Below are positions 8,511 to 41,443 of a DNA stretch of 64,000 bases, piece by piece. The notes under the pieces were generated by a model. It saw nothing but the letters and a program-made list of their open reading frames with translations. It made no database searches and was not told the DNA's origin. Every line of letters begins with the position of its first letter. Position 1 is the first letter of the stretch. The DNA is from Fibrobacteria bacterium (GTDB lineage: Bacteria > Fibrobacterota > Fibrobacteria > UBA11236 > JADFYW01), in assembly GCA_050294405.1 (NCBI GenBank), contig JBNKOC010000012.1, positions 552,091 to 616,090 on the forward strand, in the 5' to 3' direction. The position numbers and the translations under genes are program-made.

Positions 8511-8669
8511 AAAATGGGGTTTCCTTATTTTTGCCCAATAACCTTTGCCATTTTAAACTAAGTCTCCAGCTCCATTTGGCTTCAAATTGAGCCCACTTGA
8601 ATTAGCTCTTTCAAATTATTACGTTTGGCCCGATTTTGACAGGAATTTAACCTTAATTTTGAGCTAAAA

Positions 8670-10745: not shown

Positions 10746-10769
10746 CTGTTTGCAAAACTTGATTTAATG

Positions 10770-10800
10770 GCCATCTGGTTTTTCCGGGTGGCTTTTTTTA
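10770..10800 (+). terminator. Putative rho-independent terminator after fusA (GGCCATCTGG-ttttt-CCGGGTGGC stem with G.U pairs, then T-run)
   Basis: Hairpin followed by TTTTTTTA, read directly from the sequence. Confidence 0.45.
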
Positions 10801-10845
10801 TGTGCTGGTTTCCCGGGCAAGTTTTTATCTTCCTTTAAGAAAATT

Positions 10846-18602: not shown

Positions 18603-18740
18603 TTCCATATTTGTTGTTATTTTGTTAAATTATGTCTTTTATTGTTAAAATTAAGTCCATTTCTCTTGCTAATTTGCATAGGGACTGGCAATTTATTTAT
18701 AAAATCAACGATTTTTGTGAAAAAAAGGCTTTATAAAACT

Positions 18741-18756
18741 TGGCATGAACATTGAT
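18741..18756 (+). promoter_or_regulatory. Weak candidate sigma-54 promoter (TGGCAT-N5-TTGAT) about 115 nt upstream of glnB
   Basis: The -24 GG element is good and the -12 element lacks the conserved GC. Its position between a sigma-54 activator gene and glnB is suggestive only. Confidence 0.2.
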
Positions 18757-18821
18757 GTAATAAATACTATCAGTTTTTTTAACACAAAAAATTGAAATAT
18801 GAATAATTTTGTACCACTTAA

Positions 18822-19211
<390 letters not shown>

Positions 19212-19232
19212 TTTCCCCTGGTATTTTTTATA

Positions 19233-19263
19233 AAAAGGATCTTAACATAAGATCCTTTTTTTT
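19233..19263. terminator. Bidirectional rho-independent terminator between convergent glnB and the 185-aa gene (9-bp stem AAGGATCTT/AAGATCCTT, loop AACAT, flanked by A-run and T-run)
   Basis: Perfect hairpin followed by TTTTTTTTT on the + strand and preceded by AAAAA for the - strand. Confidence 0.7.
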
Positions 19264-19286
19264 CAGGTTCAGGTTGGCTTTTTCAA

Positions 19287-19844
19287 TTACCCTTGGGAAA
19301 GCCGCTCCCTGTAGAGGTAACCCGTTTTTAAATGAAAGGCCAAGCGGCTGCGCACTAACTTAAAAAATTCCAAATAAGGGGTGCTTTGATAATCCCGATA
19401 AGTCCAGTAAAAAGCTTTAAACTCACCGGCTTCATAATAAAGGGTTGGTTCTACAAATATTCCCTGCCCCAGGTAAACCCTGTGGCGCTGGTCCTTGGTG
19501 GTGGCCAAGAAAAATTGTCCCAGGGTCATGTATCCTGGATCAAGATTAAAATTTCTAAGGCCGCCTATGGAATCTTGAAGCTCCCATTCGTTGCAAAGCC
19601 TTTTTATTTCAACAATCTTTTCTCTATCCATTAAATTTTCAAATGCTAAAATGGCTCGAAATGGTTTTTCTCCCAGCTCTTTTTCATAGTAGTTGGTCCA
19701 CACAAAGGGAATGGGCAAAAGCTCTTCTTCAATGGCGCCGAATTCTTTTTCCAGCATGGTCCGAAGCGGGATATACTGGTTTTTATCTTTTAGTAAGATG
19801 GGAATCAGTAACTTAACTTTTTTTGGCTGTTTGTATTCGCCCAT
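19287..19844 (-). CDS. Conserved hypothetical protein (possibly DUF4416 family)
   Basis: 185-aa ORF with good coding character. The family call is from memory of the pattern ...NLDPGYMTLGQFFLATTKDQRHRVYLGQGIF... and is tentative. Confidence 0.4.
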   Translation of the reverse strand: MGEYKQPKKVKLLIPILLKDKNQYIPLRTMLEKEFGAIEEELLPIPFVWTNYYEKELGEKPFRAILAFENLMDREKIVEIKRLCNEWELQDSIGGLRNFNLDPGYMTLGQFFLATTKDQRHRVYLGQGIFVEPTLYYEAGEFKAFYWTYRDYQSTPYLEFFKLVRSRLAFHLKTGYLYRERLSQG

Positions 19845-19974
19845 ATGTATTCAAAAAACAAATTATATTCAGGAGAAATAGAATTTAATATTTTAAAAAT
19901 TTCCCCCTTTATTAAAAATCATGTATTATTAATAAATAATCTTTCCATTTGATTTATGAACAGGTAAAATATTT

Positions 19975-20319
19975 TTGGAAAATTTAAAAATCACATTTGA
20001 CGAAAAAGAAGACCATGTGGTTTGTACCATGTCTGGGGATATATCCTTTGATACCGTTGACGCATTACGTAAACAATTTTCAGAAATCCGCAGTTTAGGC
20101 CCTTCCACTCTTTATTTGAATTTGGGGCAGCTCAATGTATTGGGTAGTGCCGGGCTTGGAGAAATGGCTCGTCTTATTTTATGGTGCGAATCTAACGATT
20201 GTGAAGTACGTTTGGTATGCCAAAGCCGCCATATTCTGGAGGTGATTGAAATTGCCGGCCTCACAAAATACGCTCCTGCCTATCCTGACTTGGAAAGCGC
20301 CTACAAGGCCAAAAAATAA
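19975..20319 (+). CDS. STAS-domain protein (anti-sigma-factor antagonist, SpoIIAA-like)
   Basis: 114 aa; ...TLYLNLGQLNVLGSAGLGEMARLIL... is typical of the STAS fold. The putative phospho-Ser region is GSAG. Confidence 0.65.
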   Translation: MENLKITFDEKEDHVVCTMSGDISFDTVDALRKQFSEIRSLGPSTLYLNLGQLNVLGSAGLGEMARLILWCESNDCEVRLVCQSRHILEVIEIAGLTKYAPAYPDLESAYKAKK

Positions 20320-20327
20320 CCCTTTTT

Positions 20328-21089
20328 ATGCCTTCTCTTTCCCAATTAAGCCAATATTTGGATGATTTATACCAACCCCAGGATTTTGAGGATTATATTG
20401 AATCGGGCCTTTTAATAGAGGCCAACAGCCAAATATCAAAAGGAGGCACCGCTGTTAGTTTTACCTTGGAAACTGTAAAAAAAGCAGTGGAATCCAAGCT
20501 GGATTTTTTGGTGGTGCACCACGCCCACGGGTTTTGGAATAACGCTTCCCGAAGAATTAGCGGGGGGTTCGGAGAAAAGGTTTCTCTTTGCCTTTCCAAT
20601 GGAATAAATCTTTTCGGCTATCATTTGCCAATGGATGCTCAAATTGAAATTGGCAATAATATGGGCATTCTTAAGGCTTTAGAATTAGAAAAAAAGCAAG
20701 AATTTATTAAGGCCGGTAGACGCAGTATTGCCTATGTGGGACAACTAAAAGAGGCTATATCCTATGCCAAATTTTTGGAAAAAGTCCATTTGGCCATAGG
20801 TCCCAGCAATTTTGATTTTAAAGTTGGGGCAGATTTTATTAAATCTGTAGCCGTGTGTTCCGGGGGTGCGGCCAGCTCAATTCGAGAGGCAAAACAAACG
20901 GGTGCAGATTTATATCTCACCGGAGAAGCCAAGGAAGATACATACAATTTCTGCCAGGATGAAAAATTCAATTTCATTGCGGCAGGCCATTATCAAACCG
21001 AGGTTTTCGGGCCTAAATTATTAGCCGGAAAACTCGCTGGAGATTTTAAAATTCCCGTGGAATTTATCCACGATAAAAATCCGGTTTAA
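20328..21089 (+). CDS. Nif3-like dinuclear metal centre protein (YbgI/GTP cyclohydrolase 1 type 2 family)
   Basis: N-terminal LDDLYQPQDFEDY...GLL and C-terminal ...LYLTGEAKEDTY...AAGHYQTEVFG, characteristic of NIF3/DUF34. Confidence 0.7.
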   Translation: MPSLSQLSQYLDDLYQPQDFEDYIESGLLIEANSQISKGGTAVSFTLETVKKAVESKLDFLVVHHAHGFWNNASRRISGGFGEKVSLCLSNGINLFGYHLPMDAQIEIGNNMGILKALELEKKQEFIKAGRRSIAYVGQLKEAISYAKFLEKVHLAIGPSNFDFKVGADFIKSVAVCSGGAASSIREAKQTGADLYLTGEAKEDTYNFCQDEKFNFIAAGHYQTEVFGPKLLAGKLAGDFKIPVEFIHDKNPV

Positions 21090-21102
21090 GTAAATCGGGT
21101 AT

Positions 21103-22245
21103 TTGAAAAGGACTTGGTGGAGCTTGCATAACGAAGAAAAAATAAAGGCTAGAAAGGCTCTTTTGGACAATGCGAGTAATATTGCCAGCAAATCTATTTT
21201 GATTGGCTTTGATGGCTTTGTGGATGAAATTATCCATGTTGTGGATACCCGCGAATCCAAAGACAATTTTTCCCGGGTTCAAACTATTGAAAGCCTTGGC
21301 AAACGTCTTTTATCTGCTGCCGGAAAGTCTGCTAACATAGAGCTTTTTCCCAAGTCCCAAAAAGTGGGAGGTAACGGGCCCTTAATGTCCATGGCCGCTT
21401 CGGGCGCTGGTTGCAAGGTCACTACCATTGGCGTATTAGGTTATCCGCAAATACAACCCGTATTTCAACCTCTTGCGGATGTATGCGATGTGATTTCCAT
21501 TGGCGTGCCAGGCCATACAGACGCTCTGGAATTCGCCGACGGAAAAATAATGTTGGGTAAAGTGGTGAGCCTTAATGATGTATGTTGGGATAGAATTTGC
21601 GAAGTTGTGGGAGAAGAAAAATTTTTGGATTTATTATTCAAACAAAACATGGTGGCCATTACCAATTGGACAATGTTATTGAATTTGGGAGAAATAATCG
21701 AAAAAATTACCGAGAAAATCACTCAAAAAAATCCTCCTATATTTTTCTTTGATTTCGCAGATCCCGAAAAACGCCTTAAATCCGAAATTAAAATCGCCCT
21801 GTCTCAGTTGAAAAAAATGAATGAAAAGGCCCCGGTTATTTTGGGTGTGAATTTAAGAGAAGCCGAGCAAATGAGTGAGGTTTTAGGACTTAGGGATCCC
21901 ATTGTAGATGGAGTGGCTGGGCTTGAAAAGCTCTCTCAAAGACTAAAAGAAGCTATGGGAATTCACGGCGTGGTTGTGCATTCCGTCTCTTTTGCAGGCG
22001 CTTGCGTGGGCGATGAAAATACCGCAGTTGAAGGTCCTTTTTGCCAAAACCCCCTTATTACTACAGGTGCAGGAGATCATTTTAATGGAGGCTTTTGCGC
22101 TGCTCTTATTTCCGGCATCGACTTAAAATCTGTATTGTACACAGGGGTGGCCACCTCCGGATGGTACGTGCGCAATGGAGGGCCCAGTCCCAGTCTTGAA
22201 AATACCGCCGAACTGCTTTTGCAGTGGAGCGAGAACGCAATCTAA
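21103..22245 (+). CDS. PfkB/ribokinase-fold carbohydrate kinase-like protein
   Basis: C-terminal GAGD anion-hole motif (TTGAGDHFNGGFCAAL). The substrate is unknown. Confidence 0.5.
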   Translation: MKRTWWSLHNEEKIKARKALLDNASNIASKSILIGFDGFVDEIIHVVDTRESKDNFSRVQTIESLGKRLLSAAGKSANIELFPKSQKVGGNGPLMSMAASGAGCKVTTIGVLGYPQIQPVFQPLADVCDVISIGVPGHTDALEFADGKIMLGKVVSLNDVCWDRICEVVGEEKFLDLLFKQNMVAITNWTMLLNLGEIIEKITEKITQKNPPIFFFDFADPEKRLKSEIKIALSQLKKMNEKAPVILGVNLREAEQMSEVLGLRDPIVDGVAGLEKLSQRLKEAMGIHGVVVHSVSFAGACVGDENTAVEGPFCQNPLITTGAGDHFNGGFCAALISGIDLKSVLYTGVATSGWYVRNGGPSPSLENTAELLLQWSENAI

Positions 22246-24014: not shown

Positions 24015-24839
24015 TTACCTTGTAGTTGCAGCTCTGTTCCCAAGTCCCAGTCTGCAGCGAATAATTGAGGCGCCGAACTCGCGCAATGGCCGTGTTCCAA
24101 GGAGTTTGATTCCTCGTATGGGAACGGCCTCCAGTTTCTCCAACGTAAACGGACTGTCCTCCACAATTTTTTCGAACTTGGCAATGGTCATCTGGTTAAG
24201 GCCGCCCTCCACTTCGGAAAACCTGGTAGCCTCATCTTTTTTAAAATCAGATCGCCAACGTATAAGGGCTTTTTCTGTGAAAATCAAATGGGCCCACGGG
24301 AAAATGGAAAATAAATGACCGCCCCGAGGATGGAGCCATGTGGGGCCAAAAGAGGCGAGAACTACGCCCCCCGGACGCAAAAGTTTACGCATTTTTCCCA
24401 GAACAGCTGCGGGATTGGAGAAATGTTCAAAAGCATCCTTACTGACAATGATTTCCGTAGCTTCATCCGTTTCTCTCACGAATTCGCAGCGATCTTCCAC
24501 ACCTGATTCCTTTGCTTGGTTTGTGGCGAATTCAAGCCTTTTCTCCTGAATATCAAGGCCTATCACTTTGGCCGCACCCATTTTCACCATTTCCAGGGCC
24601 TCACGCCCCTCTCCACATCCGAATTCGATTACGGATTTTCCCTGGATAATATCAAAAAAATCTTCTCCGAAAAAATGCAGTAACTCTTCGCTAACCCCAG
24701 CTTCGGGGACGCTATTATTTGAAGCTTCCCGGACAAGCCGCCCTTCTTTTGGGGCTATTTTCCGCAAGATCCGATAACCCAGTTTGCCACCCAAAAATCC
24801 CATAAAGATCAATGTAGCCAAGCCCATTGCAAAACCCAA
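24015..24839 (-). CDS. Class I SAM-dependent methyltransferase with N-terminal TM anchor (last gene of the rSAM operon)
   Basis: Motif I VIEFGCGEGREALEMVKMGAAKVIGLDI and motif II/post-I regions. N-terminal hydrophobic segment MGFAMGLATLIFMGFLGG. Confidence 0.7.
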   Translation of the reverse strand: MGFAMGLATLIFMGFLGGKLGYRILRKIAPKEGRLVREASNNSVPEAGVSEELLHFFGEDFFDIIQGKSVIEFGCGEGREALEMVKMGAAKVIGLDIQEKRLEFATNQAKESGVEDRCEFVRETDEATEIIVSKDAFEHFSNPAAVLGKMRKLLRPGGVVLASFGPTWLHPRGGHLFSIFPWAHLIFTEKALIRWRSDFKKDEATRFSEVEGGLNQMTIAKFEKIVEDSPFTLEKLEAVPIRGIKLLGTRPLREFGASIIRCRLGLGNRAATTR

Positions 24840-24876
24840 GCAAATGTATTTTCTTCAAAGATTTCAGCTTTAAAAG

Positions 24877-25977
24877 TTAGGCGCTATATTTCTTTAATTC
24901 TTCGAAAACTTCGTGCTGGATTTCCGAACGTTCACAAGCTTCGCTGGAAGCTCCATAAAAGTCGCCATCTACTTTTTCAGCCAGTGCTGGGCAGCGACCG
25001 CAATAACTTTGGTGCCCGCAAGAAGAGCATTCGCTTAAAGAGTCTAAGCTAACAGCTCTGGCTTTTAAAAATTCAGGAGAACTTTCCCAAATGTTCTTTA
25101 AACTGTTTTCCAGTAAGTTCCCCGCAGAATGTTTTTGCTGAATGCAGGAATACACTTCCCCATAAGGATTAATAGTTAAAAATAAAATTCCCGCATTACA
25201 TTGAAGTTGGTAATCGCAAAAATTTTCCCGAACCAATTTATTTTGCGCATCTAAATCGTTTAAAGGGTTTTCGCTAATATGGTAAACATCGGGATTTGAA
25301 TATACTTGCTTTAGTTGTTCTCTGCTTAGTTTTTCGTTAAGCACAGATGTGTCATTTCCATTGGCGGGCATTATGGTTGTGTCATAGTGACATACGGCTC
25401 CATAGCCTTCCACCAGGCTTTTTACTTTTTCGTAGTCTTTAAAATTTCTCTTCATGATTAAACATTTGACCCGGGTATGTAGCTGGGCATCATGGAGTAG
25501 GGCCAAGGCCTTTAAGGTGGCGGTATGGGAGCCTTTTTGTTTAGCGATTTCATCATGTACTTCAGGATGGATGGAAAATAAAGTCAGGCTTACTTCCAGA
25601 ACTCCCATTTTTTTTAAAAATTGCGCCCGTTCTGTAGTTAACATGGTTCCATTGGTAAATACATTAAGGGCAAAACCCAGGTTTTTGGCTTTTTCTAAAA
25701 TAAGTTCGAAATCCGGATGGCTATATACTTCTCCTCCAGTAAGAGTCAGGTGTAAAACTCCCAAGTTTGCCAATTGTTGCATGGCATTGATGATTTGCGC
25801 AGTGCTTAGTTCTTGTTTTTTCTGGTGATGGTTAAAACAGTGAAAACATTTTAAATTGCATTTGTAAGTCAATTCTATTAACGCGCTGTATGGTTTGTTT
25901 TGGGCCCTATATAACTGGCCCACTTCATCCATCAATGAAAATGATGCATCCATAGTTTTATTATACCAAGGAGCCAA
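24877..25977 (-). CDS. Radical SAM enzyme with C-terminal SPASM domain (peptide-modifying maturase-like), copy 2
   Basis: CNLKCFHCFN (CxxxCxxC) near the N-terminus. C-terminal Cys cluster ...CSSCGHQSYCGRCPALAE... (auxiliary Fe-S, SPASM). Confidence 0.85.
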   Translation of the reverse strand: MAPWYNKTMDASFSLMDEVGQLYRAQNKPYSALIELTYKCNLKCFHCFNHHQKKQELSTAQIINAMQQLANLGVLHLTLTGGEVYSHPDFELILEKAKNLGFALNVFTNGTMLTTERAQFLKKMGVLEVSLTLFSIHPEVHDEIAKQKGSHTATLKALALLHDAQLHTRVKCLIMKRNFKDYEKVKSLVEGYGAVCHYDTTIMPANGNDTSVLNEKLSREQLKQVYSNPDVYHISENPLNDLDAQNKLVRENFCDYQLQCNAGILFLTINPYGEVYSCIQQKHSAGNLLENSLKNIWESSPEFLKARAVSLDSLSECSSCGHQSYCGRCPALAEKVDGDFYGASSEACERSEIQHEVFEELKKYSA

Positions 25978-25985
25978 ATACGAAG

Positions 25986-26276
25986 CTAGCTGGCAGAAAC
26001 CTCAATTAATCCTTTTTCGGCAATTTCGCTAATAAAGCCCTGTATATCGTTGCTAGCGGTGTGGGCATCTGTGTCGTAAAGTTCGCAAATATCCTCGACA
26101 ATACTGGCCATAGTTTTTTTTCCGCCCTCAAGGCTTTTCCATATGGCAACGGCACTGTGGTTGAGACGATGTACCTGATTGGATTTTGGGGTGATGGCGA
26201 TTAGGTATTCTCCCAAATACCTCCAGGCAATGTCAGGGTTGCGGTGGATGTAAGATTTTAAGTTCATTTTTTCCAT
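25986..26276 (-). CDS. PqqD-family protein (RiPP recognition element / peptide chaperone)
   Basis: 96 aa; ...YLIAITPKSNQVHRLNHSAVAIWKSLEGGKKTMASIVEDICELYDTDAHTASNDIQGFISEIAEKGLI fits the PqqD/RRE pattern (v..LN.tA..IW.l.dG..t..eI...l...Y.v......D...F...L...gLi). Confidence 0.75.
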   Translation of the reverse strand: MEKMNLKSYIHRNPDIAWRYLGEYLIAITPKSNQVHRLNHSAVAIWKSLEGGKKTMASIVEDICELYDTDAHTASNDIQGFISEIAEKGLIEVSAS

Positions 26277-26288
26277 GTTATATCCAGG

Positions 26289-27380
26289 TTAGGATTTATT
26301 TCCCTTAATATATATTTCTTCCAATACCCCTGCTTCCATGCATGTCCAGGGCTCGGAGCCTGTATATTTTCCAGTGTTCGCATAGATAGAACCAGAGCTG
26401 CGCCTGCAATAGGCTTTCTGGGGACATTCCCGGCAGTCTTCAAAATCTTTAAGCTCAAGTCCCCGAATCTTATTTAGTACAGGAGAGTTGTGCCATATTT
26501 CTTTAAAACTTTTTTTGCGCAAATTTCCCGAGGGAATAGGCGCTCCTATACAGGGATAAACTTCTCCGAACGCAGATATGCCGCACATTCCCCTGGCGCA
26601 GCTGCATTGCACCGAGGCATCGGGGTCTTTATCTGGTTGCGGCAAATAAGAATGTAAACTGTTGCTATATAACTCCATAAGCTCTTCACGATTTAACCTA
26701 TTGTCCAAAGAGGAATCCGTGCCGTCATAGCGGGCGGTTATTTGGGGGTTTAAGTTAAAGCTTACAGAGAGCTCGTTGCACAATTCCATGAAAGCATCCA
26801 CTTCAGCGAAATTTCGATTGGTGATAACATAATTTATCCGGCAAAATAAACCCTGCTTTTTGCACTCCCCAATTCCAGCAATAATTTTTTCAAAAGAGCC
26901 TGGCACCCGGGTTAAATGATCATGGCTATTTGCCTGGGCTCCATATAAACTTATTTCCAACCCAAATATTCCCGCCTCTTTTAACCGTTTTACCATATTT
27001 GGATTAAGAAGCATGCCATTGGTTTTTAAATAAACAGCCATATTTTTTTGCCGTATATGCCTGACAATATCAAAAAAGCCGGGATGTACTAATGCTTCGC
27101 CACCTGTAAGGGTAATTTCCAGTGCGCCTTCCTCGTACAGCTCATCTATTATATTTGAAATTTCCAAAACGCTCAGCTGCGCTTGTGGAAAAACTTTTTC
27201 TTTGGGGAGGGCTCTGTCAAAGTTATAGCAATGTTGGCATTTAAAATTGCAATCTACGGTAATTTCAAAGGTAATGTGCAGAGGGATGTTATTTTCTTCC
27301 ACCCATTTTCTGGTGGCTATTGAAAGTTCCCCCTGAGGTGAAAAATTACTGTTGCCAATTCCTCCGTAGCTGTTAGCCAT
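26289..27380 (-). CDS. Radical SAM enzyme with C-terminal SPASM domain, copy 1 (first gene of the minus-strand operon)
   Basis: CNFKCQHCYN (CxxxCxxC). C-terminal ...CSCARGMCG...CRECPQKAYCRRSSG... Cys-rich SPASM-like region. Confidence 0.85.
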   Translation of the reverse strand: MANSYGGIGNSNFSPQGELSIATRKWVEENNIPLHITFEITVDCNFKCQHCYNFDRALPKEKVFPQAQLSVLEISNIIDELYEEGALEITLTGGEALVHPGFFDIVRHIRQKNMAVYLKTNGMLLNPNMVKRLKEAGIFGLEISLYGAQANSHDHLTRVPGSFEKIIAGIGECKKQGLFCRINYVITNRNFAEVDAFMELCNELSVSFNLNPQITARYDGTDSSLDNRLNREELMELYSNSLHSYLPQPDKDPDASVQCSCARGMCGISAFGEVYPCIGAPIPSGNLRKKSFKEIWHNSPVLNKIRGLELKDFEDCRECPQKAYCRRSSGSIYANTGKYTGSEPWTCMEAGVLEEIYIKGNKS

Positions 27381-27445
27381 AATGAAGTTTATAATACCTT
27401 TTTTTAAAATAGGGACAAAGCGAAAATTATTTTTAGTTTAAAGCC

Positions 27446-28264
27446 ATGGAAAATCAAAAGCCTAAGGGGTTCCTCCTTCTTTTAGAAATTGCAGGTTTAC
27501 GCTGTGTCTTGAGCTTAAAAAACAAGAAACTTTTAACTGCCATAGAACGCCGATATAAAGGTTATTTAAAAAGCCCCGCAAAATATAAGGCTCATTTTAG
27601 TTTGGAAATTTCCACCAGTGTGAGGCATTTTTCCAGAAGCATGAAGCCAAAAATTATTTCCCTGGATGGGGAAAACGACTCCCTGTTAAAAAGGAGAGAT
27701 TTTGAAGCTAATATTAAAAATAAGAGCGTAAAAGCATCTATACATCCCTCCATATTCTCACTGGATGCACTAATTAGAATTTTATGGGCAGGGTTTTTGC
27801 CAAAACATAACGGCCTTTTGTTGCATTCTTCGGCCATTGTGCAGCACAAAAAGGCTTATATATTTTCAGGTAAATCCGGTGCTGGAAAAACCACTATTTC
27901 CCGTTTGTCCGGGGGGCAAATTTTAAATGATGAAATTGTGGCTTTGTGTAAAAACAACACCGGAAAATGGAAAGTATGGGGAACCCCATTTTGGGGGGAA
28001 ATGGGAAGCGGCCCCCACTATCCCAAAGGATATCCATTGGGCCAACTATATTTTATAAACAAAAGCAAAAAAAACTTTGTGGAAGATTTAAGCCCAATGG
28101 AATCCCTGGCTCCCCTTATGAAAGTGATTTGCTTTTTTGAATCTGCCACAAATTCAACTCAGCAGCTTTTAAACTTGGCTTTGATTTTCTTGGGTAGCCA
28201 TCCTCCAAAGATGTTATTCTTTGATAAAAGTCCCGAATATTTAAAGCTGCTTAAAGGCAGATAA
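27446..28264 (+). CDS. HPr-kinase-related P-loop protein (HprK C-terminal-domain-like kinase, as seen in some RiPP/lasso-peptide clusters)
   Basis: Walker-A-like FSGKSGAGKTTIS in the position expected for the HprK/P C-terminal domain. It lies divergent from the rSAM operon. The family assignment comes from motif and context only. Confidence 0.5.
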   Translation: MENQKPKGFLLLLEIAGLRCVLSLKNKKLLTAIERRYKGYLKSPAKYKAHFSLEISTSVRHFSRSMKPKIISLDGENDSLLKRRDFEANIKNKSVKASIHPSIFSLDALIRILWAGFLPKHNGLLLHSSAIVQHKKAYIFSGKSGAGKTTISRLSGGQILNDEIVALCKNNTGKWKVWGTPFWGEMGSGPHYPKGYPLGQLYFINKSKKNFVEDLSPMESLAPLMKVICFFESATNSTQQLLNLALIFLGSHPPKMLFFDKSPEYLKLLKGR

Positions 28265-28280
28265 AAAAAACTAGCCCATT

Positions 28281-28703
28281 ATGGAACTCCGCCAAAAAAA
28301 AGCATTGGAACTGGCTCTCCAGGAATTTGGGGAGTCTTGGGTAAAGCTTGGAGGCTGGAGCATGTGGCCTTTTATTAGGAACGGGGATGAGGTCCTTTTA
28401 AAACCTTTGGCAAAAAAAAACATGTCGGGACGGATTGTAGGGTATTTTGCAGGGAATCAGCTAATTGTGCATCGGGTGCTGCGGGAAGAGTGGCGGGAAA
28501 ATGGCTTGTGTTTTATGGTGGAAGGGGATTTTAATCCAAATTCTGCTGTTTGGATAAATTCTTGCGATTGTCTCGGGCAAGTGGTGCGAATCCGTAGAAA
28601 TGGACAGCTTTTGCCTAAATTTTTTGCTGGGCGGCTTTTTGCCTTTCCCCGAATATTTAGCTATTTGGTGAAAGCTTTTAAAAAGACTCCAAAAGCCCAA
28701 TAG
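28281..28703 (+). CDS. S24/S26-like serine peptidase domain protein (candidate leader peptidase)
   Basis: 140 aa; ...LGGWSMWPFIRNGDEVLLKP... resembles the GDSM-P..-GD motif of signal-peptidase/LexA-type peptidases (Ser nucleophile; the general base is not confidently placed). Confidence 0.45.
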   Translation: MELRQKKALELALQEFGESWVKLGGWSMWPFIRNGDEVLLKPLAKKNMSGRIVGYFAGNQLIVHRVLREEWRENGLCFMVEGDFNPNSAVWINSCDCLGQVVRIRRNGQLLPKFFAGRLFAFPRIFSYLVKAFKKTPKAQ

Positions 28704-28719
28704 CCTCTTCGGCCACTCC

Positions 28720-28748
28720 TTGAAACCCGTTGCCGCCCGTGGTATAAT
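28720..28748 (+). promoter_or_regulatory. Near-consensus sigma-70-type promoter TTGAAA-N17-TATAAT, about 150 nt upstream of the PQQ-repeat gene
   Basis: TTGAAA at 28720-28725, a 17-nt spacer, and TATAAT at 28743-28748. Confidence 0.4.
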
Positions 28749-28898
28749 AAGTCAGTAGTTGAAATCCCGTTTTAATTTTAAGGCAGCATATAATCAAAAA
28801 ATATCGGGACTGAAAAGTTTTGTTTCAAAAGGAATGAATAACATAAGTACAGGACCAAAATGTCAGGAAAGTCACATTAGCCTATTAAATAACATCAG

Positions 28899-30629
28899 AT
28901 GAAAAGCTTTTTAACCATATGCATGCTCTTTAGCTCCTGGGCTTATTCCCCAATGGCTGCCGAATGGCCGGGCTTTCGGGGAAACCCTGAGCGTACCGGA
29001 TTTTATTCCCGCGCCGTGGGCGTTCCGGAAAAAAATGCGGAGCCTCAGTGGAAAATTAAACTTCCCGGAGCTGTTATTTCTTCCCCGGCTATTGAAAATG
29101 GATATGTATATATCGGAGCCAGAGATTCCAGTGTGTATTGCTTGGATGCCAAAACCGGCGAAGTGATTTGGAAAGTGAAAACCGGTGGCTGGGTGGATAG
29201 TTCGCCTACTATACATAAGGATATAGTATACGTGGGTTCCAGAGATGGTTATTTATATGCCCTGGATAAAAAATCAGGAGATGTAATCAACAAGTATCCC
29301 GCTGGATTGCAATTGTCCTCACCTGCGGTTTATAACGATGAAAGCGTAATAACAGGCCTGGGCCCTCCGGTGAACGGAGTTTCTTCCTTTCCTTTAAGGG
29401 CTAGAAGCACGAAAATTGTGGATACAGTTTGGAGCCAACCCCTTCCTCAAATGAGCTATTCATCACCAGCCTTATCCAGAAATATTATGGTTATTGGCGC
29501 TAGTAATGGCAAAATGTATGGAAAAGATGCTTCCACCGGGGAAAATTTGTGGGATATTCAAACCCAAGGGGGCGTTTATTTGTCTACCCCATCCATTGAT
29601 GACAGTGTGGTATATTTTTCTCCGGGGAACCTGGACCAAAACATATATGTAAATCGACTTGAAAACGGCGAGGAACTGCGCAAGGTTTCCATCGGAGGGC
29701 CCCAGGGTTCTGTGCCTTCGGGCTATTTGCGTAAAACGGGTGCAGGTCCTAAATATATCCATCCCCATGTATTTAAACAGCTGTTAAGGTTATCGCCTGA
29801 AGACAGGCAGATGTATATGGACCAACTTAACTCAGAGGGTTACAAGCTCAATAAACTGTCAGCCAAAGGTCCCGAAGAAGAAAGCTACAAATGGATTCCC
29901 ATAGGAGGAATGAAAACTTCTTCCGTGGCCGTTGGACCAAATAATGCCTATGTTATTCAAAAATATCTGGGATTTTTGGAAACCTCCCCCAATCAATTCG
30001 ATTATCGGCCTTATTTTATACTGACCTCAGTGGATAAATCCAAGGGAAAGCAATCCTGGCAATTCCATAAAGTATTGGATTCCGAAAGGCTGGGTTACGC
30101 CTCCTCACCTATAGTAAGTAACTATTTAAAAGGGGGCCAGGTGGTGTTTTTTGGCTGGGGTGAAGGACGGGTTTATGCCCTTCATGACGACAAGGGGAAA
30201 TCAGAGCCCCAAATCCTTTGGGAAGACAAATTGCAGGGCCATGTTATTTCTTCGCCAGCCCTTGCGGATGGCCAACTTTATTTTGCCACCACCGAAGGCT
30301 ATGTATATGCATATCCGGTGGCTGTGGCCGCTAATCCCGCAGCTTTGAAAGAAGGCGTGTACGCCTATCCAAATCCGGTGCGTAAACGGGCTACGGAAGT
30401 CAATATTAATTTTGATCTCTCCGGCTCTACTGCTGATGTTAGTCTTGTAGTGTACAATACCGCTGAAAGGCCGGTTTTCAGAGACAACTTCCGGGTAAAT
30501 ACGGTTATGTCCTACAGTTGGAAACTAAAAGGCGTGGCTAACGGCGTGTATTTTGCCAAAGTAGTTGTGGATTACGACAGCGGTGGTTCCGATTCCAAAT
30601 GGATAAAAATTGCGGTGCTCAGGGAATGA
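28899..30629 (+). CDS. Secreted PQQ-like (BamB-type) beta-propeller repeat protein with T9SS-type C-terminal sorting domain
   Basis: Signal peptide. Repeated ...NGYVYIGARDSSVYCLDAKTGEVIWK... / ...DIVYVGSRDGYLYALDKKSGD... blades. C-terminus YPNPV...GVYFAKVVVDY...KIAVLRE matches Por_Secre_tail-like CTDs. Confidence 0.7.
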   Translation: MKSFLTICMLFSSWAYSPMAAEWPGFRGNPERTGFYSRAVGVPEKNAEPQWKIKLPGAVISSPAIENGYVYIGARDSSVYCLDAKTGEVIWKVKTGGWVDSSPTIHKDIVYVGSRDGYLYALDKKSGDVINKYPAGLQLSSPAVYNDESVITGLGPPVNGVSSFPLRARSTKIVDTVWSQPLPQMSYSSPALSRNIMVIGASNGKMYGKDASTGENLWDIQTQGGVYLSTPSIDDSVVYFSPGNLDQNIYVNRLENGEELRKVSIGGPQGSVPSGYLRKTGAGPKYIHPHVFKQLLRLSPEDRQMYMDQLNSEGYKLNKLSAKGPEEESYKWIPIGGMKTSSVAVGPNNAYVIQKYLGFLETSPNQFDYRPYFILTSVDKSKGKQSWQFHKVLDSERLGYASSPIVSNYLKGGQVVFFGWGEGRVYALHDDKGKSEPQILWEDKLQGHVISSPALADGQLYFATTEGYVYAYPVAVAANPAALKEGVYAYPNPVRKRATEVNINFDLSGSTADVSLVVYNTAERPVFRDNFRVNTVMSYSWKLKGVANGVYFAKVVVDYDSGGSDSKWIKIAVLRE

Positions 30630-31597
30630 TTATGAAAAGATACATACTACATAGTTCCCTAATAAGCCTTGTGCTTTTATTTTCCTACGGGATAACCCCG
30701 GCATTTTCCCAGGATTTTGCCTCGCGTTCTTATGCGGAATTCGGCGCGGAATATTTAAAACTGCCACGCCATGCGGGGACAGCCAGTCTTGCCAACGCCA
30801 GCGCCGCCTGGGAAGAAAACCTGCTGGGCCTTCAATACAATCCGGGGCTTATTGGTTACAATAGCCAACATCATGTAAACCTAAGCTATACCTTTTTAAC
30901 CCTGGACAGGCTTCATTACAGTTTGGAATATGTAAGCCCTAAATATTACGGTCAGAATTTTGGGGTTTCTATTACCAGCTTTGGCGTAAAAGATATTGAG
31001 GAAAGAGACGATACCGGCCAATTAAACGGCCATTTTGATGATACGGAAATTGCGGCTGATTTTCTGGCTGGGGGACAGCTCAAAGGCTGGTTTAGTTATG
31101 GAATAGCTTTACGATATATACATCAGCAATTGGGCGAATTTAATGAGTCTGGAGCTAAAGGTTTTGGCATGGATATAGGTGTGCATTACAAGCCAATGGA
31201 AAAAATAGGAATAGGGGCGAGTTTGCAAAATTTAGGTTCTTATTTGTGGTGGGAAACCGGACGCGAGGATCAAGTGGTGCCCATATTCAGGCTTGGAGTA
31301 AATGGAAATATTGTGGACTCGGTGCTCAAGGCGGAAATAGACATTGTCAAACCCTATTCTCAACCCATTGAATCTAACATTGGAGTGGAGGGAAAAATAT
31401 TAAGGGTAATAGCCGTTCGCGTTGGAATTGTAAATGCGCTAACCTATGATGCGGATGGCGCTGTATATATGGATCCAGAATTTTTTCTGGGAGTGGGGTT
31501 GTCCCACAAATTCTTTGGGTTTGAATATGCGGCCATGAAACCGGGTTCGGAACTGGGAATGGGGCATAAATTTTCGTTGCAGGTCAATTTTAATTAA
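30626..31597 (+). CDS. Outer-membrane beta-barrel protein, possibly PorP/SprF-family T9SS-associated
   Basis: Signal peptide MIMKRYILHSSLISLVLLFSYGITPAFSQ. About 320 aa with alternating amphipathic strands, ending ...FSLQVNFN. Start ATG overlaps the upstream stop (ATGA). Family assignment rests on size, barrel character and position upstream of giant surface-protein genes. Confidence 0.35.
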   Translation: MIMKRYILHSSLISLVLLFSYGITPAFSQDFASRSYAEFGAEYLKLPRHAGTASLANASAAWEENLLGLQYNPGLIGYNSQHHVNLSYTFLTLDRLHYSLEYVSPKYYGQNFGVSITSFGVKDIEERDDTGQLNGHFDDTEIAADFLAGGQLKGWFSYGIALRYIHQQLGEFNESGAKGFGMDIGVHYKPMEKIGIGASLQNLGSYLWWETGREDQVVPIFRLGVNGNIVDSVLKAEIDIVKPYSQPIESNIGVEGKILRVIAVRVGIVNALTYDADGAVYMDPEFFLGVGLSHKFFGFEYAAMKPGSELGMGHKFSLQVNFN

Positions 31598-31632: not shown

Positions 31633-33990
31633 ATGCTGTTAAATAAAATATCCACATTGTTTTTGACCGTCGTCTTTGGCGCAGTATGTTATGGGGATTG
31701 GACTCAAACTGCCAGAGTGGTGGGATATAATCCTACTAAGGCGGATGTGGACATCTCCTCGGCAATGGAATGGGCGAAAAGCTTGAATGCTTCCGTGGTG
31801 GTCATTAGGCAAACTGCAGTGAGTGAATTTGATTGGCTGGATAAGCGAAATAAGGGTGACTCTCTTGCCCTTGACTTATTAGATCGCGTCATTAAAACCT
31901 GCCACCGAAATGGCTTAAGGGCTGTGGTGGATTTAAGCGTTTTAGAATTGAGAAGTTCCAATGGAGATGCAGATGAGGATGGCAAATTGGATGTTGGCGC
32001 AACAACCCTCTTGTCCACCCATTCCAGCTGGATTCAGGAAGACCTTCAGGGTAACAAGGCCGTTTTTTATGGGAAAATAAACCCTGAATCCAAAAAAGGA
32101 GATGAAACAGTTTGGGCTAATATCCACAGTTCCAATTTTAAAACCAAATTGCTTGCTTTAGTTAAAGCCGTAAGCTCAATCAATCCAGATGGTATCTTAT
32201 TTTCCAATGTTAGTTATCCTGTGAGAGAGGGGTGGGAGAATAAGTGGGCTAGTTTTGACAGCTATTCTGTAACGAATTTTAATAGCACCCTTCCCACTCA
32301 ATCTCAATTAGGCGATGTTCATTCCGCTGCTTTTACAAAGTGGGCTTCCTGGCGCATGAACAAATTATCCCAATTTTCAACGGAATTGAATTCCGCTGTG
32401 AAAAATGAAAATCCAGATGTCAAAACATTTATGCTGATTAAAAACGCCATCTCTCACGAAACATTAGTCCGCGGTTATGACTTTGATAAGCTCACTAAAA
32501 TTTTTGACGGCTTTGTGTATGATATAGACTTTTTGGGTGATGCGGTTTCCCGAAACAGTTATGAATGGATGATGTATTTTGCCTCAATTAAAGGGGCAAA
32601 CGAACTGGATGGGGAAAAGCCAAGCTGGGTAATTGATAGAACTAATACCTCTTCCTCCCTTACTGTATCTAAGGATATGAACAAGTTTGGGGACGCAGTT
32701 GCCACAGGGATGTATACTTCTTTGCAAGCTGGCATGAATGTGTGGATAACAGGGGGCAACAGAAAATACAGTGCCGCCACAAATGTAACCAAAATGGCTG
32801 AAATTTTTTCCTGGGTTAAAGAAAACCAAAATTGGCTTTATGGAGAAAGAAAAGTAGCCCAGTCTGTGGGGGTATATTTTTCTCAATCCAGTTTGCTGTA
32901 TCGCACAGGAAATAAATGGCAGGGGCATTTAGCCTCCTTTTATGGAACCCTAATGATGTTACACGAATTGCATATTCCCACAACCATAATCAGCACTGGA
33001 AATTTGAGTTTAGTAGACAAAGAGGAAGTGGAAGGTATAATACTTCCGCAGGTGGACTGCGCCTCTACAGTGGAAATTGATTCTTTAAGGGAGTATTACG
33101 AAAAAAGCAATCTCATTGTGTATTTTAGCGGCAGCGATGATAACCATTGCACGGAAAAAGGTGTATCCGCAGATTTTAGCTGGGATGATCAGCTATTGGA
33201 GGTAATGCAGAGAGGCGGGATTAATAAAGGCGAGACCTTTTTTAATAATGTAATGATGGATGGTAATGGGAATTTATTAAACGAAAATTACCCCAATTCT
33301 GTAGCCGCTGATATAAAAACCCAATTTTCAACGGATTTAAATTTTGCAGCCCAAATTGGATACGCACCCTTTGAAATGCCCTCTACCACTGCGGTTCGAG
33401 CCGTGAAAACAGATGAAGCGTTCTTTTATCATCTGGTTAATTTTGGAGGGCTGGATAATGGTAATATTGCCCGCAGTATCGAAGAAGAAGTGAATATTTA
33501 TCGAAATGGGGAAGAGTTGGAATCGGGAGCCATCGAAATGAACGGCGGGAGTTTGGAAGTTATCAGTTATTACTCCGATTTGAATTCAGAACAAACTCTT
33601 AACTTGGTAGAAAACTCCATGGGTAGCTCTGCCATTATCAGAGCGGGTGCTTTACCTGATTTAGAGGAAGATGTTGTATCCAATAAATTTATGGCTGCAA
33701 ACAGGAAAAAGCCGTCTTTCAACCTTCCAAAAAAATTATTGGTTCAAACAAAACTTATAAAGATTCATTATCAAAATCCCGGCCAGGAAATTGAAACTAT
33801 GGATTTCCAGGTATATGATATACATGGAAGGAATATTAAACAAATTTCCCTGGAAAGAGGGCGAAATGGCTTTAGTGCTAATTGGGATTTGGAAAGCCAA
33901 CCTGGAAATTATTTTCAGCCTGGAATGTACGCTTACAGGCTAGTTGGAAATGGAAAAGCCATAAAAATTGGGCAAATGGTGGTGCGTTAA
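31633..33990 (+). CDS. Secreted 785-aa protein, N-terminal glycoside-hydrolase-like (TIM-barrel-like) region, T9SS-type C-terminal sorting domain
   Basis: Signal peptide MLLNKISTLFLTVVFGAVCYG. The C-terminus ...FQVYDIHGRNIKQISL...GMYAYRLVGNGKAIKIGQMVVR is CTD-like. The catalytic-domain call is weak. Confidence 0.4.
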   Translation: MLLNKISTLFLTVVFGAVCYGDWTQTARVVGYNPTKADVDISSAMEWAKSLNASVVVIRQTAVSEFDWLDKRNKGDSLALDLLDRVIKTCHRNGLRAVVDLSVLELRSSNGDADEDGKLDVGATTLLSTHSSWIQEDLQGNKAVFYGKINPESKKGDETVWANIHSSNFKTKLLALVKAVSSINPDGILFSNVSYPVREGWENKWASFDSYSVTNFNSTLPTQSQLGDVHSAAFTKWASWRMNKLSQFSTELNSAVKNENPDVKTFMLIKNAISHETLVRGYDFDKLTKIFDGFVYDIDFLGDAVSRNSYEWMMYFASIKGANELDGEKPSWVIDRTNTSSSLTVSKDMNKFGDAVATGMYTSLQAGMNVWITGGNRKYSAATNVTKMAEIFSWVKENQNWLYGERKVAQSVGVYFSQSSLLYRTGNKWQGHLASFYGTLMMLHELHIPTTIISTGNLSLVDKEEVEGIILPQVDCASTVEIDSLREYYEKSNLIVYFSGSDDNHCTEKGVSADFSWDDQLLEVMQRGGINKGETFFNNVMMDGNGNLLNENYPNSVAADIKTQFSTDLNFAAQIGYAPFEMPSTTAVRAVKTDEAFFYHLVNFGGLDNGNIARSIEEEVNIYRNGEELESGAIEMNGGSLEVISYYSDLNSEQTLNLVENSMGSSAIIRAGALPDLEEDVVSNKFMAANRKKPSFNLPKKLLVQTKLIKIHYQNPGQEIETMDFQVYDIHGRNIKQISLERGRNGFSANWDLESQPGNYFQPGMYAYRLVGNGKAIKIGQMVVR

Positions 33991-33991
33991 T

Positions 33992-36900
33992 ATGTTCAAA
34001 AAAATATTGTTAACATTGCTGCTAATTTCATTGTCACAAGTGGCAGCATATTTTGTGGAATTAAACAGTATTGAAGACGCTGAAATGAGGGATGGAAGTC
34101 CTACGCTAAATTTTGGCGGGGCTCAAAATGTCCATTTTGGCACTAACGGTGGAGTGATATACAGGGGGCTAATAAAAATTAACTATGAAGACAGTATTCC
34201 TGACGGGGCTGTGGTGGATAGCGCTAAGTTATATATGTATATACAGGCAATAAATAGTGCACCCCAAAATGTTAGTATTTATCAGGTGCTGGTGGATTGG
34301 AATGCTGGGTCAAAAAACGGAGCCTATTTGGCGGGAGCTGTGAGCTGGGACTCGGCCAAAACTGGAATTACAGCTTGGAATGCAGCAGGAGCAAGCGGGT
34401 CGGGTTCAGATTATGTGGCAACCCCCATTACAAGCTATGCCTTTGCCAACTCTGGAGCATATGATTCTGTTTCCATTGAGGATGCCTTTAATTCCTGGAT
34501 ACAAGGTTCCCCAAACTATGGCATATTATTAACAAATGACGATGAAACTTGCGGCGGAGGAGCAAATTGCCGGATTCGCACCAGAGCAGAGGAACACAGT
34601 GATTCCAGTTATGTACGTATTTGGTACCAAATCCCCCCTCAATTAACCGGGCTAAGCGGAGGCGCGGAAGCCGGGGCCACCCAAAGCGATTCCAGTACAG
34701 TGACTATTTCCTATGAAATATATGATCCAGATGACGCCACAAATACAGTATCGGCTCAATATTGCTTAACTTCCAATGACTGTTCTGCGGCAGGAGCTGG
34801 CTGGACGGCTATGGCCAATACCACCGGAGATTTAGGGACCGTGTCCTCCACATCATCCTCCAGCGACAGGTTTATATACTGGGATGTGGAAACCCAACTG
34901 GGGTCCAGCGTTGATGATACTTATCGCGTGAGACTTATTGCTGTGGATGACTCGAGCAGTGTGGATACTCTTGAATCTGCCGATTTTATCGTAGACACTC
35001 AGGCTCCCACGAGTTTGGCTGGATTTTCCATGGATTCTGTCTATGAATCTTCAGCTGATGTCAGTTGGAGCACCCCGGCTGCGGATAACCACTTTAGCCA
35101 TTATGAAATATGGTTTGCGGAGGTGAAAGCCAATGTAGAGGCCAGAAACGCCTCTGCCGTGGAATGGGACCATACCGACGATGCCAACTTAGCCAATGCG
35201 GCAACTACATCCACATTGGTTCAGCTATTATCTTTCAGCACTAAATACTTTTTTAAAATTTGGGCTATCGACTCCGCAGGAAATGAAATATCTCTTCCCA
35301 CAGATAGTGGTACTACTCAGGCCTCAGATGTTCCTCTTGTATCTGGTTACGATCCTGAAACCAATGTAAGCGGAGTTATGGTCAGTTCTGATTCCGTAAA
35401 AATTCAATACGAAGTTCTCGACTTAGATGACTCTGTGGTTACGGTAACAGTAGAGACCAAACTGGCAAGCCAGGGGAGTTACGATAATTGGGCTACAGTG
35501 GATAGTTATATGTCAGGAGATACGGGCACTGTGGTGCAGTCTACCACCACGGACAGGTTAATTATCTGGGACATTGCTGCCCAACATGGAACCTCAGTTA
35601 ACGAAACAGCAACGGTAAGAGTTATTGCGGTGGATAGCAATGGGAATGCGGATACCAGTACTTCAGCTAGCTTTACCGTAGATACCCAAGCTCCCACAGC
35701 TCCAAGCGCTTTAACATCAACAGCAACTACTTCTTCTTCCGTTTCCTTAAGTTGGACTGCGGGTTCGGATGCAAATTTCAATCATTATGAAATTTGGTAT
35801 GGTACAGACCAGACAGAAGTGGAAAATAGAAATATTGCGGCGGAATGGGATGACTCGCCCCAGGATGCGAATTTGGCCACGGCTTCAACCACCAGTACTA
35901 CTATAACAGGGCTTCAGGCAAGTGTCACCTACTATTTCCATATATGGGCAGTGGATGATTATGGGAATGAAGCGGATTATGGGACAACATATTCCGTGGC
36001 AACTGCTGCAACTACGGATTTACAAATAACAGATATTGAAGATAATGTAATGCGCAGTAACAATACATCGGCAAATTGCGGCTCTGAACCAATCCGGGGT
36101 GGCCCCACCGCTGGAAGAAATGGAGGTTGGGGAGGCACTAAAAGAAGCTTAGTGAAAATTAACATGTCAGAAGTGCCCGCAGGGGCTACTATCGTATCAG
36201 CAACCTTTACCGCCCGATGTAATGCAGTAGGCGATGTTTCCTCTGTCACTATTGAGGCCTTTCCCTTATTGCAGGCCTTTGTGGAAGGAACAGATGGTTG
36301 CGGGACACAAGCGGGTTCCAGTTGCTGGAATGACTATGGGGCCGGTTCCTGGAGCACACCGGGGTTAGCTTCAGGCGTAGATTATGAGGCTACAGCGGTT
36401 TCATCTCAATCCGTAGCCGATGTGGGCACATACTCTTGGGATTTGACCAGCGTGGTTCAGGAATGGGTAAATGGAACCAGAACAAACAATGGGTTGGTAT
36501 TTATTGAATCTACGGAATCCGGTACTACCGGAAAGTTTTTTGATGCGGCAGAGGGAGCTATCCCACCATTCCTGGATGTACAATATACCTTGGGTTATCC
36601 TGAAGTAACCGGTTTGTCGGATGCCGCCCTTATTGGGGCGACCATGACCGGGGATCCGGATTCGGCCACTATAAGTTTTGAAGTATCAGATCCAAATGAT
36701 GTTAATGTAACTATTACTCTGCAATATAAACTTGCAGTTGGGGGAAGTTGGGCTGATGCTACTGAGGTGCTGGGCTATAGCGGTTCACAATCTGCCGCGG
36801 ATGGCGATGCCGACAGGAGCATTCGTTGGGCGGCTCGTTCTGAGCTTGGTAATGTGGATAACAATTATATGGTTCGAATTATAGCAACTGATGGCACCCT

Positions 36901-39733: not shown

Positions 39734-39889
39734 ATGAAAGATTTGGGTAAGCATAAAAAAAAGCTAAAATACGAAGCACCTAAGGTAGAATCCGAAGCTA
39801 TATACGAGCAAAGTGCCTTGGCTTGCGGTAAATGCTTGACCACCAATACCCATCAAGCAGCCTGCTCCAAATCTCCCACAACCTCTTAA
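39734..39889 (+). CDS. Unannotated 50-aa small ORF, Cys-containing and RiPP-precursor-like: MKDLGKHKKKLKYEAPKVESEAIYEQSALACGKCLTTNTHQAACSKSPTTS
   Basis: Read by hand from the intergenic region between the two giant genes. Lys-rich N-terminal half and a C-terminal half with CxxC...C and Thr/Ser, ending in Ser. There is no strong SD. Confidence 0.3.
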   Translation: MKDLGKHKKKLKYEAPKVESEAIYEQSALACGKCLTTNTHQAACSKSPTTS

Positions 39890-41169: not shown

Positions 41170-41443
41170 TTAAAATTAGCACTCTGTCTTTCCAAAGCTG
41201 CATTAGCTATCTCCTTGTAAAGGAAATTTAACTTCCCAAATATTTGGAAAAAAACCTGCATTAGCGCCTTTAGAATTCTTTAATGAAGGTTCTTTTGGGT
41301 GGTATAATTATTAAGGGCAAAAAATGGAGGATTAGCCAAAAATTAAGGAAAACTGCTACAGAATTTTGAATTAAACTGAAAGTGGTTTTATTTCAAAATT
41401 GGGGCAATTTTATCATTTTCCAATACTTATGATTTGACATTTG

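Follow-up and report, generated by a model that had tools for sequence, protein, structure and literature searches.

A candidate leader-dependent peptide maturation locus in a Fibrobacteria bacterium, with its precursor peptide encoded apart from the enzymes

A 64,000-nt stretch of DNA from a Fibrobacteria bacterium (the window, whose numbering is used for all positions unless a locus is named) contains a divergent cluster of six open reading frames (ORFs) at 24015-28703. The analysis presented here indicates that the locus probably encodes a leader-dependent pathway of the type that matures peptides that are made by the ribosome and modified after translation (RiPPs), with the product of a small gene at 39734-39889 as its substrate. 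Comparison of gene neighbourhoods shows a conserved module comprising the putative precursor, a PqqD-type RiPP recognition element (RRE), one or two radical S-adenosylmethionine (rSAM)/SPASM enzymes, a ScmC-family P-loop protein and a Sec11-like peptidase. The generic features of a RiPP system are present, namely a gene-encoded precursor with a conserved leader and a variable core, a co-located RRE, modifying enzymes and a predicted leader peptidase. The initial annotation had described a maturation cluster of RiPP type, assignable to no named class, the substrate of which was encoded elsewhere, possibly by the ORF at 39734. Both proposals are supported, in that the 39734 ORF belongs to a conserved precursor family whose members adjoin homologues of the kinase, PqqD and rSAM genes in dozens of genomes. 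An orphan cluster thereby becomes a testable system in which every part has a name, from the precursor and the RRE through the two rSAM enzymes and the kinase to the leader peptidase.

The precursor peptide family

A scan for small ORFs in the neighbourhoods of ScmC homologues revealed similar ORFs of 46-54 aa, adjoining cluster genes, in L001 (Fibrobacterota, fully syntenic), L003 (Planctomycetota) and L005 (Fischerbacteria). A motif search then yielded positions 39734-39889 of the window and 14548-14712 of L001. A hidden Markov model (HMM) built from 55 acidobacterial peptides only, when run against 7,534 ORFs, matched the 39734 ORF with E=7.3e-10, this being the sole match in the window. 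The gene is, as judged by codon comparison, under purifying selection: across 42 codons aligned with the L006 homologue, 11 are identical, 24 differ synonymously and 7 non-synonymously, and the flanking sequences do not align. The encoded peptide (MKDLGKHKKKLKYEAPKVESEAIYEQSALACGKCLTTNTHQAACSKSPTTS) divides into a predicted leader, MKDLGKHKKKLKYEAPKVESEAIYEQSALA, and core, CGKCLTTNTHQAACSKSPTTS, with cleavage predicted after A28-L-A30. The leader carries the motif Y13-x-x-P16, and the 21-aa core contains three Cys and a C-terminal Ser. Four peptides of the family gave no match to NCBIfam or Pfam models, and family members are named 'hypothetical protein' in public sources.

Positional conservation was examined in a pooled set of 144 distinct peptides, the core being delimited in 143, and in a second set of 66 cluster representatives. 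All 66 representatives have a lasso-like aromatic-x-x-P leader motif, and in 64 the distance from its aromatic residue to the first core Cys is exactly 18 positions. The junction reads A-x-A|C in 40 of the 66 and is mostly small-x-small in the remainder; of 61 peptides derived from genomes, 60 have A-x-A|C. C-G-K opens the core in 54 representatives. At the other end of the molecule, 139 of the 143 peptides terminate in Ser. In 124 the last Cys precedes the C-terminus by exactly seven residues, and 96 of these have Pro at +4, which gives a C-x3-P-x2-S-COOH tail. Such strict rules offer handles both for enzymology and for genome mining. The L005 locus lacks the peptidase gene and has a GGG|C junction in place of A-x-A|C; its peptide can be counted only tentatively as a member (acidobacterial HMM, E=0.77). 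Additionally, an 83-aa ORF in a Fermentibacteria locus (L042 11788-12039, minus strand), with the leader end FETSALSCAK, a C-terminal Ser and a much longer core, encoded on the opposite strand to ScmC, may be a divergent member.

L001, L169 and L010 encode homologous peptides at the corresponding operon position, and in three related Fibrobacterota-type loci the peptide gene is 3-4 kb downstream of the kinase gene. The order in L169 is rSAM-PqqD-rSAM, diverging from ScmC, peptidase, a beta-propeller gene, a DUF5723 gene, peptide and tyrosyl-tRNA synthetase (TyrRS). The peptide gene directly follows DUF5723 in both L001 and L169, and TyrRS follows the peptide gene in L169. In the window the precursor gene lies ∼11 kb downstream of the cluster enzymes. 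DUF5723 is separated from it by two genes for large surface proteins (31633-39682), and a second such pair (40015-47116) separates it from TyrRS, at 47318. These surface-protein genes are apparent insertions that have split the locus, and would explain the 11-kb distance between precursor and enzymes.

The distribution of the system was examined in 80 loci, one genome per species, obtained by scanning with a ScmC alignment. Most are from Acidobacteriota, with others from Fibrobacterota/Chitinivibrionales, Planctomycetota, Verrucomicrobiia, Dormibacterota, Sumerlaeota, Armatimonadota and further groups. ScmC, PqqD and rSAM genes occur together in 69 of the loci, and of these full loci 56 have a peptide match, 62 a S24/S26-like peptidase and 28 a nucleotidyltransferase of the NTP_transf_5 family; the peptide gene typically starts 0-28 nt after the rSAM stop codon. 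Since the core is retained in 69 of 80 loci, and the divergent layout recurs in L001, L009 and L169, the gene arrangement is not due to chance. A regex search for a precursor in about nine Acidiferrales loci in which the peptidase gene directly follows the rSAM gene found none. A metagenome scan with the A-type rSAM enzyme revealed a soil clade with the order peptide-ScmC-PqqD-rSAM, and when 1.84 billion representative proteins were searched with a profile, 66 matches emerged, all but one of them peptides of 45-88 aa, giving 65 further peptide clusters. The remaining match, P0071 (1,783 aa), was rejected as a repetitive false positive. At 50% identity the family comprises at least 66 clusters of peptides, spread over Fibrobacterota, Acidobacteriota, Planctomycetota, Verrucomicrobiota and other phyla, and has no curated model.

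The cluster enzymes and a proposed pathway

The claim that the cluster encodes two rSAM/SPASM enzymes, a PqqD protein and a methyltransferase was borne out by Pfam scans, in which both rSAM enzymes scored 83-88 bits (Radical_SAM) and 40-42 bits (SPASM). The two are only 27% identical and belong to separate clades. The A-type enzyme (26289-27380) has the CX3CX2C motif and a SPASM motif without its fourth Cys (CRECPQKAYCRRSS), and the B-type enzyme (24877-25977) has the complete SPASM cysteine set (CSSCGHQSYCGRC). This fourth Cys of the CX2CX5CX2-3C box is missing from every A-type member examined and present in the B and acidobacterial types. The corresponding A-type region reads CX2CX5C-R-R-S-S (or C-S-R-D-R), at residues ∼316-330 of the window enzyme, with extra Cys upstream (VQCSCARGMCG); together, the missing and the extra Cys suggest an altered set of auxiliary-cluster ligands. 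Orthologues of the A-type enzyme in L001, L009 and L169 are 47-49% identical to it, and an A-like enzyme is the sole rSAM of the soil-metagenome loci. Of the two, the B-type enzyme is slightly more similar to the lone rSAM found in acidobacterial loci. Two-Cys cores were found in all single-rSAM loci examined, and three-Cys cores (CGKC...C) in the window, L001 and L169, the genomes in which both rSAM enzymes and a peptide are visible.

The P-loop protein matched only the PEPCK ATP-binding region in the local copy of Pfam. Precomputed matches place it weakly in PF27840 'ScmC', together with at least 30 homologues, and the match to HprK-related kinase A is also weak. Its catalytic motif, H...GxxGxGK[ST]...D[DE], has the same spacing as in experimentally tested lasso-peptide kinases; these work on linear precursors, at the C-terminal Ser, and the RRE speeds them up (PMC8498205, PMC10368454). 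The analogy drawn in the initial annotation to kinases of this type fits with the near-invariant terminal Ser of the family. The 96-aa protein also passes the Pfam PqqD model (Table 1), as expected of the RRE that it had been taken for, and its best NCBIfam matches are to the ScmD, GeoRSP PqqD and lasso PqqD models, all below cutoff.

The 140-aa peptidase itself has no Pfam match, and a word-indexed homologue search with it recovered nothing besides the query. Acidobacterial homologues of the protein score above the Pfam Peptidase_S24 cutoff. Three boxes, G-x-S27-M-x-P, H64-R65 and G82-D83, are invariant in 15 homologues, and a profile of the peptidase and 14 homologues matched human SEC11A/SEC11C at 5e-11, ahead of bacterial signal peptidase I (SPase I) and LexA. 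The previous assignment as a S24/S26-like peptidase thus holds at family level, but the protein is specifically Sec11-like (S26B, Ser/His) as opposed to LexA-like. Hydropathy scans revealed no N-terminal hydrophobic segment, and a hydrophobic C-terminal tail in some homologues. A single-sequence AlphaFold model was discarded, having a pLDDT of 34. The peptidase gene adjoins or is fused to ScmC; single-ORF fusions in the order ScmC-S26 peptidase were observed in soil-metagenome loci L095 (7-1125), L131 (8118-9938) and L132 (3291-5111), and more weakly in L123, L130 and L103.

On the basis of these observations, the PqqD protein would bind the Y-x-x-P-x-V leader and present the peptide to the enzymes. 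The ScmC-family kinase would phosphorylate the C-terminal Ser51 on its side chain, and each rSAM/SPASM enzyme may install one intramolecular cross-link via a core Cys, most likely a thioether. One cross-link per enzyme is suggested by the pairing of two-enzyme loci with three-Cys cores and of one-enzyme loci with two-Cys cores. The cytoplasmic, possibly tail-anchored, Sec11-like peptidase is then predicted to cut after Ala28-Leu-Ala30, releasing a 21-residue product that probably acts with the co-conserved secreted beta-propeller.

Several observations weigh against this interpretation. Homology and positional invariants are the basis on which phosphorylation, cross-link type and cut site are predicted, and the cut could be one residue earlier, since the leader motif sits at -17/-14/-12 in lasso leaders as opposed to -18/-15/-13 here. 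The correlation between rSAM number and core Cys draws on only three two-rSAM genomes, and the best NCBIfam match of the A-type enzyme is the heme synthase AhbD, albeit at 170 bits against a cutoff of 500. No peptide was found within 10 kb in 13 of the 69 full loci. Seven Chitinivibrionales loci (L002, L004, L007, L011-L014, at ∼8000-11300) carry HD_5, NTP_transf_5, ScmC and S26-like peptidase genes within polysaccharide export/glycosyltransferase clusters but have neither rSAM nor peptide within 10 kb, indicating that the kinase-peptidase pair may have other substrates. Finally, the cluster includes no exporter gene, despite the extracytoplasmic location of the co-conserved propeller. (In L004 and L013 a PqqD gene lies ∼10 kb downstream.)

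The recurrent association with a propeller raises the question of whether the modified peptide instead serves that protein as the precursor of a cofactor or as a small, cross-linked subunit. Precedents of both kinds exist: in pyrroloquinoline quinone (PQQ) biosynthesis PqqA, PqqD and PqqE feed propeller quinoproteins, and in quinohemoprotein amine dehydrogenase (QHNDH) the gamma-subunit QhpC is cross-linked by the rSAM/SPASM enzyme QhpD before assembly with the beta-propeller subunit. The propeller gene is syntenic after the peptidase in the four Fibrobacterota-type loci L001, L009, L010 and L169. In 37 loci, mostly acidobacterial, a propeller gene separates the peptide gene from the peptidase gene, and in nearly all of these the gene after the propeller encodes a 162-aa lipoprotein. 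Moreover, the unit of peptide, ∼750-aa PQQ_2 propeller and ∼162-aa lipoprotein is tandemly duplicated as a whole before a single peptidase in L073 (12092-18746) and L080 (11849-18491). However, about 18 acidobacterial loci with peptide and peptidase have no propeller, the peptidase being followed by RNase R, and the soil clade is mostly without a propeller nearby. The propeller matches generic PQQ_2/BamB repeats only, far below the cutoffs of quinoprotein models; the core has no Trp, nor the conserved Tyr/Glu pair, of the cysteine tryptophylquinone or PQQ kind; and there is no evident export route for the peptide. A PQQ- or QHNDH-like role consequently appears unlikely, although it would, if true, reveal an unrecognised 'peptide plus propeller' system running through Fibrobacterota and Acidobacteriota, with a chemistry lacking precedent in which rSAM cross-links would be combined with a C-terminal phosphoserine that a nucleotidyltransferase would extend in many relatives. 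The repeated association with a secreted beta-propeller is a hint that the function goes beyond that of an antibiotic.

The same parts could also support a different chemistry, in which phosphorylated Ser is eliminated to dehydroalanine and the Cys seven residues upstream adds to it, closing a C-terminal lanthionine-type ring, with the rSAM enzymes acting elsewhere, for example on C-G-K. The fixed C-x6-S spacing in 124 of 143 peptides does suggest a ring of fixed size, and a kinase step followed by elimination is how class III/IV lanthipeptide synthetases are established to work. Pfam and NCBIfam scans revealed no lyase or cyclase homologue in the cluster, though, and the lasso kinases of the same fold leave a stable phosphoserine, upon which the often co-located NTP_transf_5 enzyme builds (PMC8498205). 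A lanthionine-type product is accordingly regarded as rather improbable, and a stable C-terminal phosphoserine next to rSAM-derived cross-links is preferred.

A heme or cofactor pathway (AhbD/NirJ-like) role, or one as a protein maturase resembling the anaerobic sulfatase maturase, with a coincidental neighbourhood, was rejected as highly improbable on scores and context: AhbD and NirJ2 are among the top NCBIfam matches but fall 3-5 fold short of the curated cutoffs, so that HMM scoring does not place the enzymes in a non-peptide family, a PqqD RRE is encoded between the two rSAM genes, a conserved Cys-containing peptide is encoded after the rSAM gene in 56 of 69 loci, and the window has no heme-pathway genes or sulfatase nearby. 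Several rSAM homologues (L049 10783-11961 and cluster members) carry the IMG name 'AdoMet-dependent heme synthase', which is probably a mis-annotation, since they score 145-170 bits where the cutoff is 500 and occur in a peptide context.

Relationship to described systems

None of the six cluster proteins reached a curated NCBIfam cutoff. The nearest models (ScmD and GeoRSP-PqqD for the RRE; AhbD, MftC, ScmE/F and GeoRSP for the rSAM enzymes) are 2-5 fold under theirs. The likeness to GeoRSP systems suggested in the initial annotation was not upheld, with 33.6 bits for TIGR04302 (at least 100 needed) and 99 and 105 bits for TIGR04303 (at least 400 needed). The SynChlorMet (SCM) models of Haft (TIGR04248-04251, ScmC/ScmD/ScmE/ScmF) are nearest, and describe the same parts, namely two rSAM/SPASM paralogues, a PqqD homologue and a ScmC-family P-loop protein. 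They too are well under cutoff, at 14.1/125 (ScmC), 36.1/100 (ScmD), 104.3/400 (ScmE) and 110.1/400 bits (ScmF), as are relatives in other phyla, and the present system adds the Sec11-like peptidase, often NTP_transf_5, and the precursor family. To our knowledge, and according to the curated description, the SCM precursor has never been identified; the peptide family described here is thus a candidate answer to a question that has been open since curation, namely the substrate of ScmC-type cassettes.

With the phosphorylated and phosphoglycosylated lasso peptides (paeninodin, pseudomycoidin, Bsf) the system shares a YxxP leader, a discrete PqqD RRE, a kinase of the HPr-kinase fold and a C-terminal Ser (PMC8498205, PMC10368454). 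NTP_transf_5 is likewise shared, being encoded in many relatives, although the window itself has none. However, neither a lasso cyclase (Asn-synthetase-like) nor a B2 transglutaminase-type protease is present among the ORFs at 24015-31597 or beside the peptide, their place being taken by the rSAM/SPASM enzymes and the Sec11-like serine peptidase, and the lasso PqqD NCBIfam models are under cutoff (30/70). Sactipeptide and ranthipeptide systems (subtilosin/AlbA, SCIFF/CteB, PapB) have in common an rSAM/SPASM enzyme, an RRE and a short Cys core, and AlbA, StsB and PapB are partial matches. Nevertheless, the scores are 5-8 fold under cutoff, the RRE is a separate protein, and precursor, kinase and peptidase are unrelated.

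Other assignments fared less well. PQQ biosynthesis is not indicated by the PqqE (95-115 bits, cutoff at least 381) or PqqD (26.4 bits, at least 46) models, and the peptide lacks the E-x3-Y motif of PqqA; Tyr24 of the window leader is Phe in homologues. For mycofactocin, MftC reaches 112-130 bits (at least 265), and the peptides end in Ser as opposed to Val-Tyr. For the HPr-rel-A system the scores are 19.9 bits (TIGR04352, at least 200) and 24.1 bits (PqqD_rel_X, TIGR04353, at least 35). The peptidase shares with S26B signal peptidases (SEC11A/C, archaeal SPase I) the Ser/His/Asp boxes (SM-P, HR, GD) and the rule of small residues at -3/-1 of the junction. It differs in having no N-terminal anchor and no signal peptide substrate, in scoring 33.4 bits against the TIGR02228 cutoff of 51.85, in being fused to the kinase in some homologues, and in its presumed substrate, a cytoplasmic RiPP leader.

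Taken together, the system looks like a hybrid in which lasso-type leader, RRE and kinase logic would be joined to rSAM/SPASM cross-linking and a Sec11-type leader peptidase, and hence like a new RiPP family. We know of no described RiPP class that combines these three elements. Full-text literature searches, with subscription-only papers outside their reach, found no published description of the system, and none of its genes is mentioned in the RRE-Finder paper (PMC7470986).

Locus layout and neighbouring genes

The six ORFs were confirmed at the positions and on the strands initially assigned to them (Table 1), and, as had been stated, the gaps within 24015-28898 contain no convincing small gene, the small ORFs there not being conserved. 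The closest relatives of the window genes are in metagenome-assembled genomes of Fibrobacterota.

Table 1. Positions of the cluster genes, adjacent genes and precursor gene in the window
Feature	Position	Strand	Basis
Class-I SAM methyltransferase	24015-24839	-	Pfam Methyltransf_31/11/23/25
Radical-SAM/SPASM enzyme, B type	24877-25977	-	CNLKCFHC motif; Pfam Radical_SAM + SPASM
PqqD-family RRE, 96 aa	25986-26276	-	Pfam PqqD 56.7 bits (cutoff 23.4)
Radical-SAM/SPASM enzyme, A type	26289-27380	-	CNFKCQHC motif; Pfam Radical_SAM + SPASM
65-bp AT-rich divergent intergenic region	27381-27445	.	Read from sequence; presumed promoters of both operons
ScmC-family P-loop protein, predicted peptide kinase	27446-28264	+	GKSGAGKT motif; PEPCK/HprK fold
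Sec11-like (S26B-type) serine peptidase, 140 aa, predicted leader peptidase	28281-28703	+	
Secreted PQQ_2/BamB-like beta-propeller, probable type IX secretion system (T9SS) C-terminal domain	28899-30629	+	Pfam scan
DUF5723/PorV-like outer-membrane protein	30599-31597	+	Pfam DUF5723 28.6 bits; PorV 19.8 bits, under cutoff
Precursor peptide, 51 aa	39734-39889	+	HMM, codon comparison, synteny

The methyltransferase had been listed as a membrane-anchored component of the cluster. The gene is absent between the SSF transporter gene and the B-type rSAM gene in L001 and L009, and from L169 altogether; since it is missing from these three syntenic loci, it was rejected as a core component. It is probably co-transcribed and lineage-specific, and its membership in the system is doubtful. 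A hydropathy scan of the protein revealed no strong transmembrane segment.

The cluster was also said to sit beside a T9SS surface-protein locus. The first two genes of that locus, which encode the PQQ_2 propeller and the DUF5723 protein, are conserved together with the cluster. Both genes probably belong to the system, as judged from their synteny, which for DUF5723 is seen in Fibrobacterota only. The four surface-protein genes on either side of the precursor gene encode products of 785 aa, 1904 aa (fn3, Disaggr_repeat), 384 aa (FG-GAP) and 1891 aa (fn3, beta-propeller).

In the Fibrobacteria locus L010, a gene with an FGE-sulfatase domain (4286-5164; formylglycine-generating enzyme/EgtB-like fold) lies directly upstream of ScmC. 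The 8.4-kb contig has no rSAM gene, and NTP_transf_5 is encoded just after a three-Cys peptide. The FGE-sulfatase gene may provide an oxygen-dependent replacement for Cys chemistry, or its position may be coincidental.

Immediately downstream of TyrRS in the window, at 48523-49609 and 8.6 kb from the peptide gene, is a pair of genes encoding DsbB and a DsbA-like thioredoxin, which are probably unrelated housekeeping genes. Upstream of the cluster, synteny between window 17013-22245 and L001 677-5432 extends over genes for a sigma-54 activator with a GAF domain, P-II, DUF4416, NIF3, a PfkB-family kinase and the SSF transporter, indicating that the cluster occupies a stable chromosomal position in this lineage.

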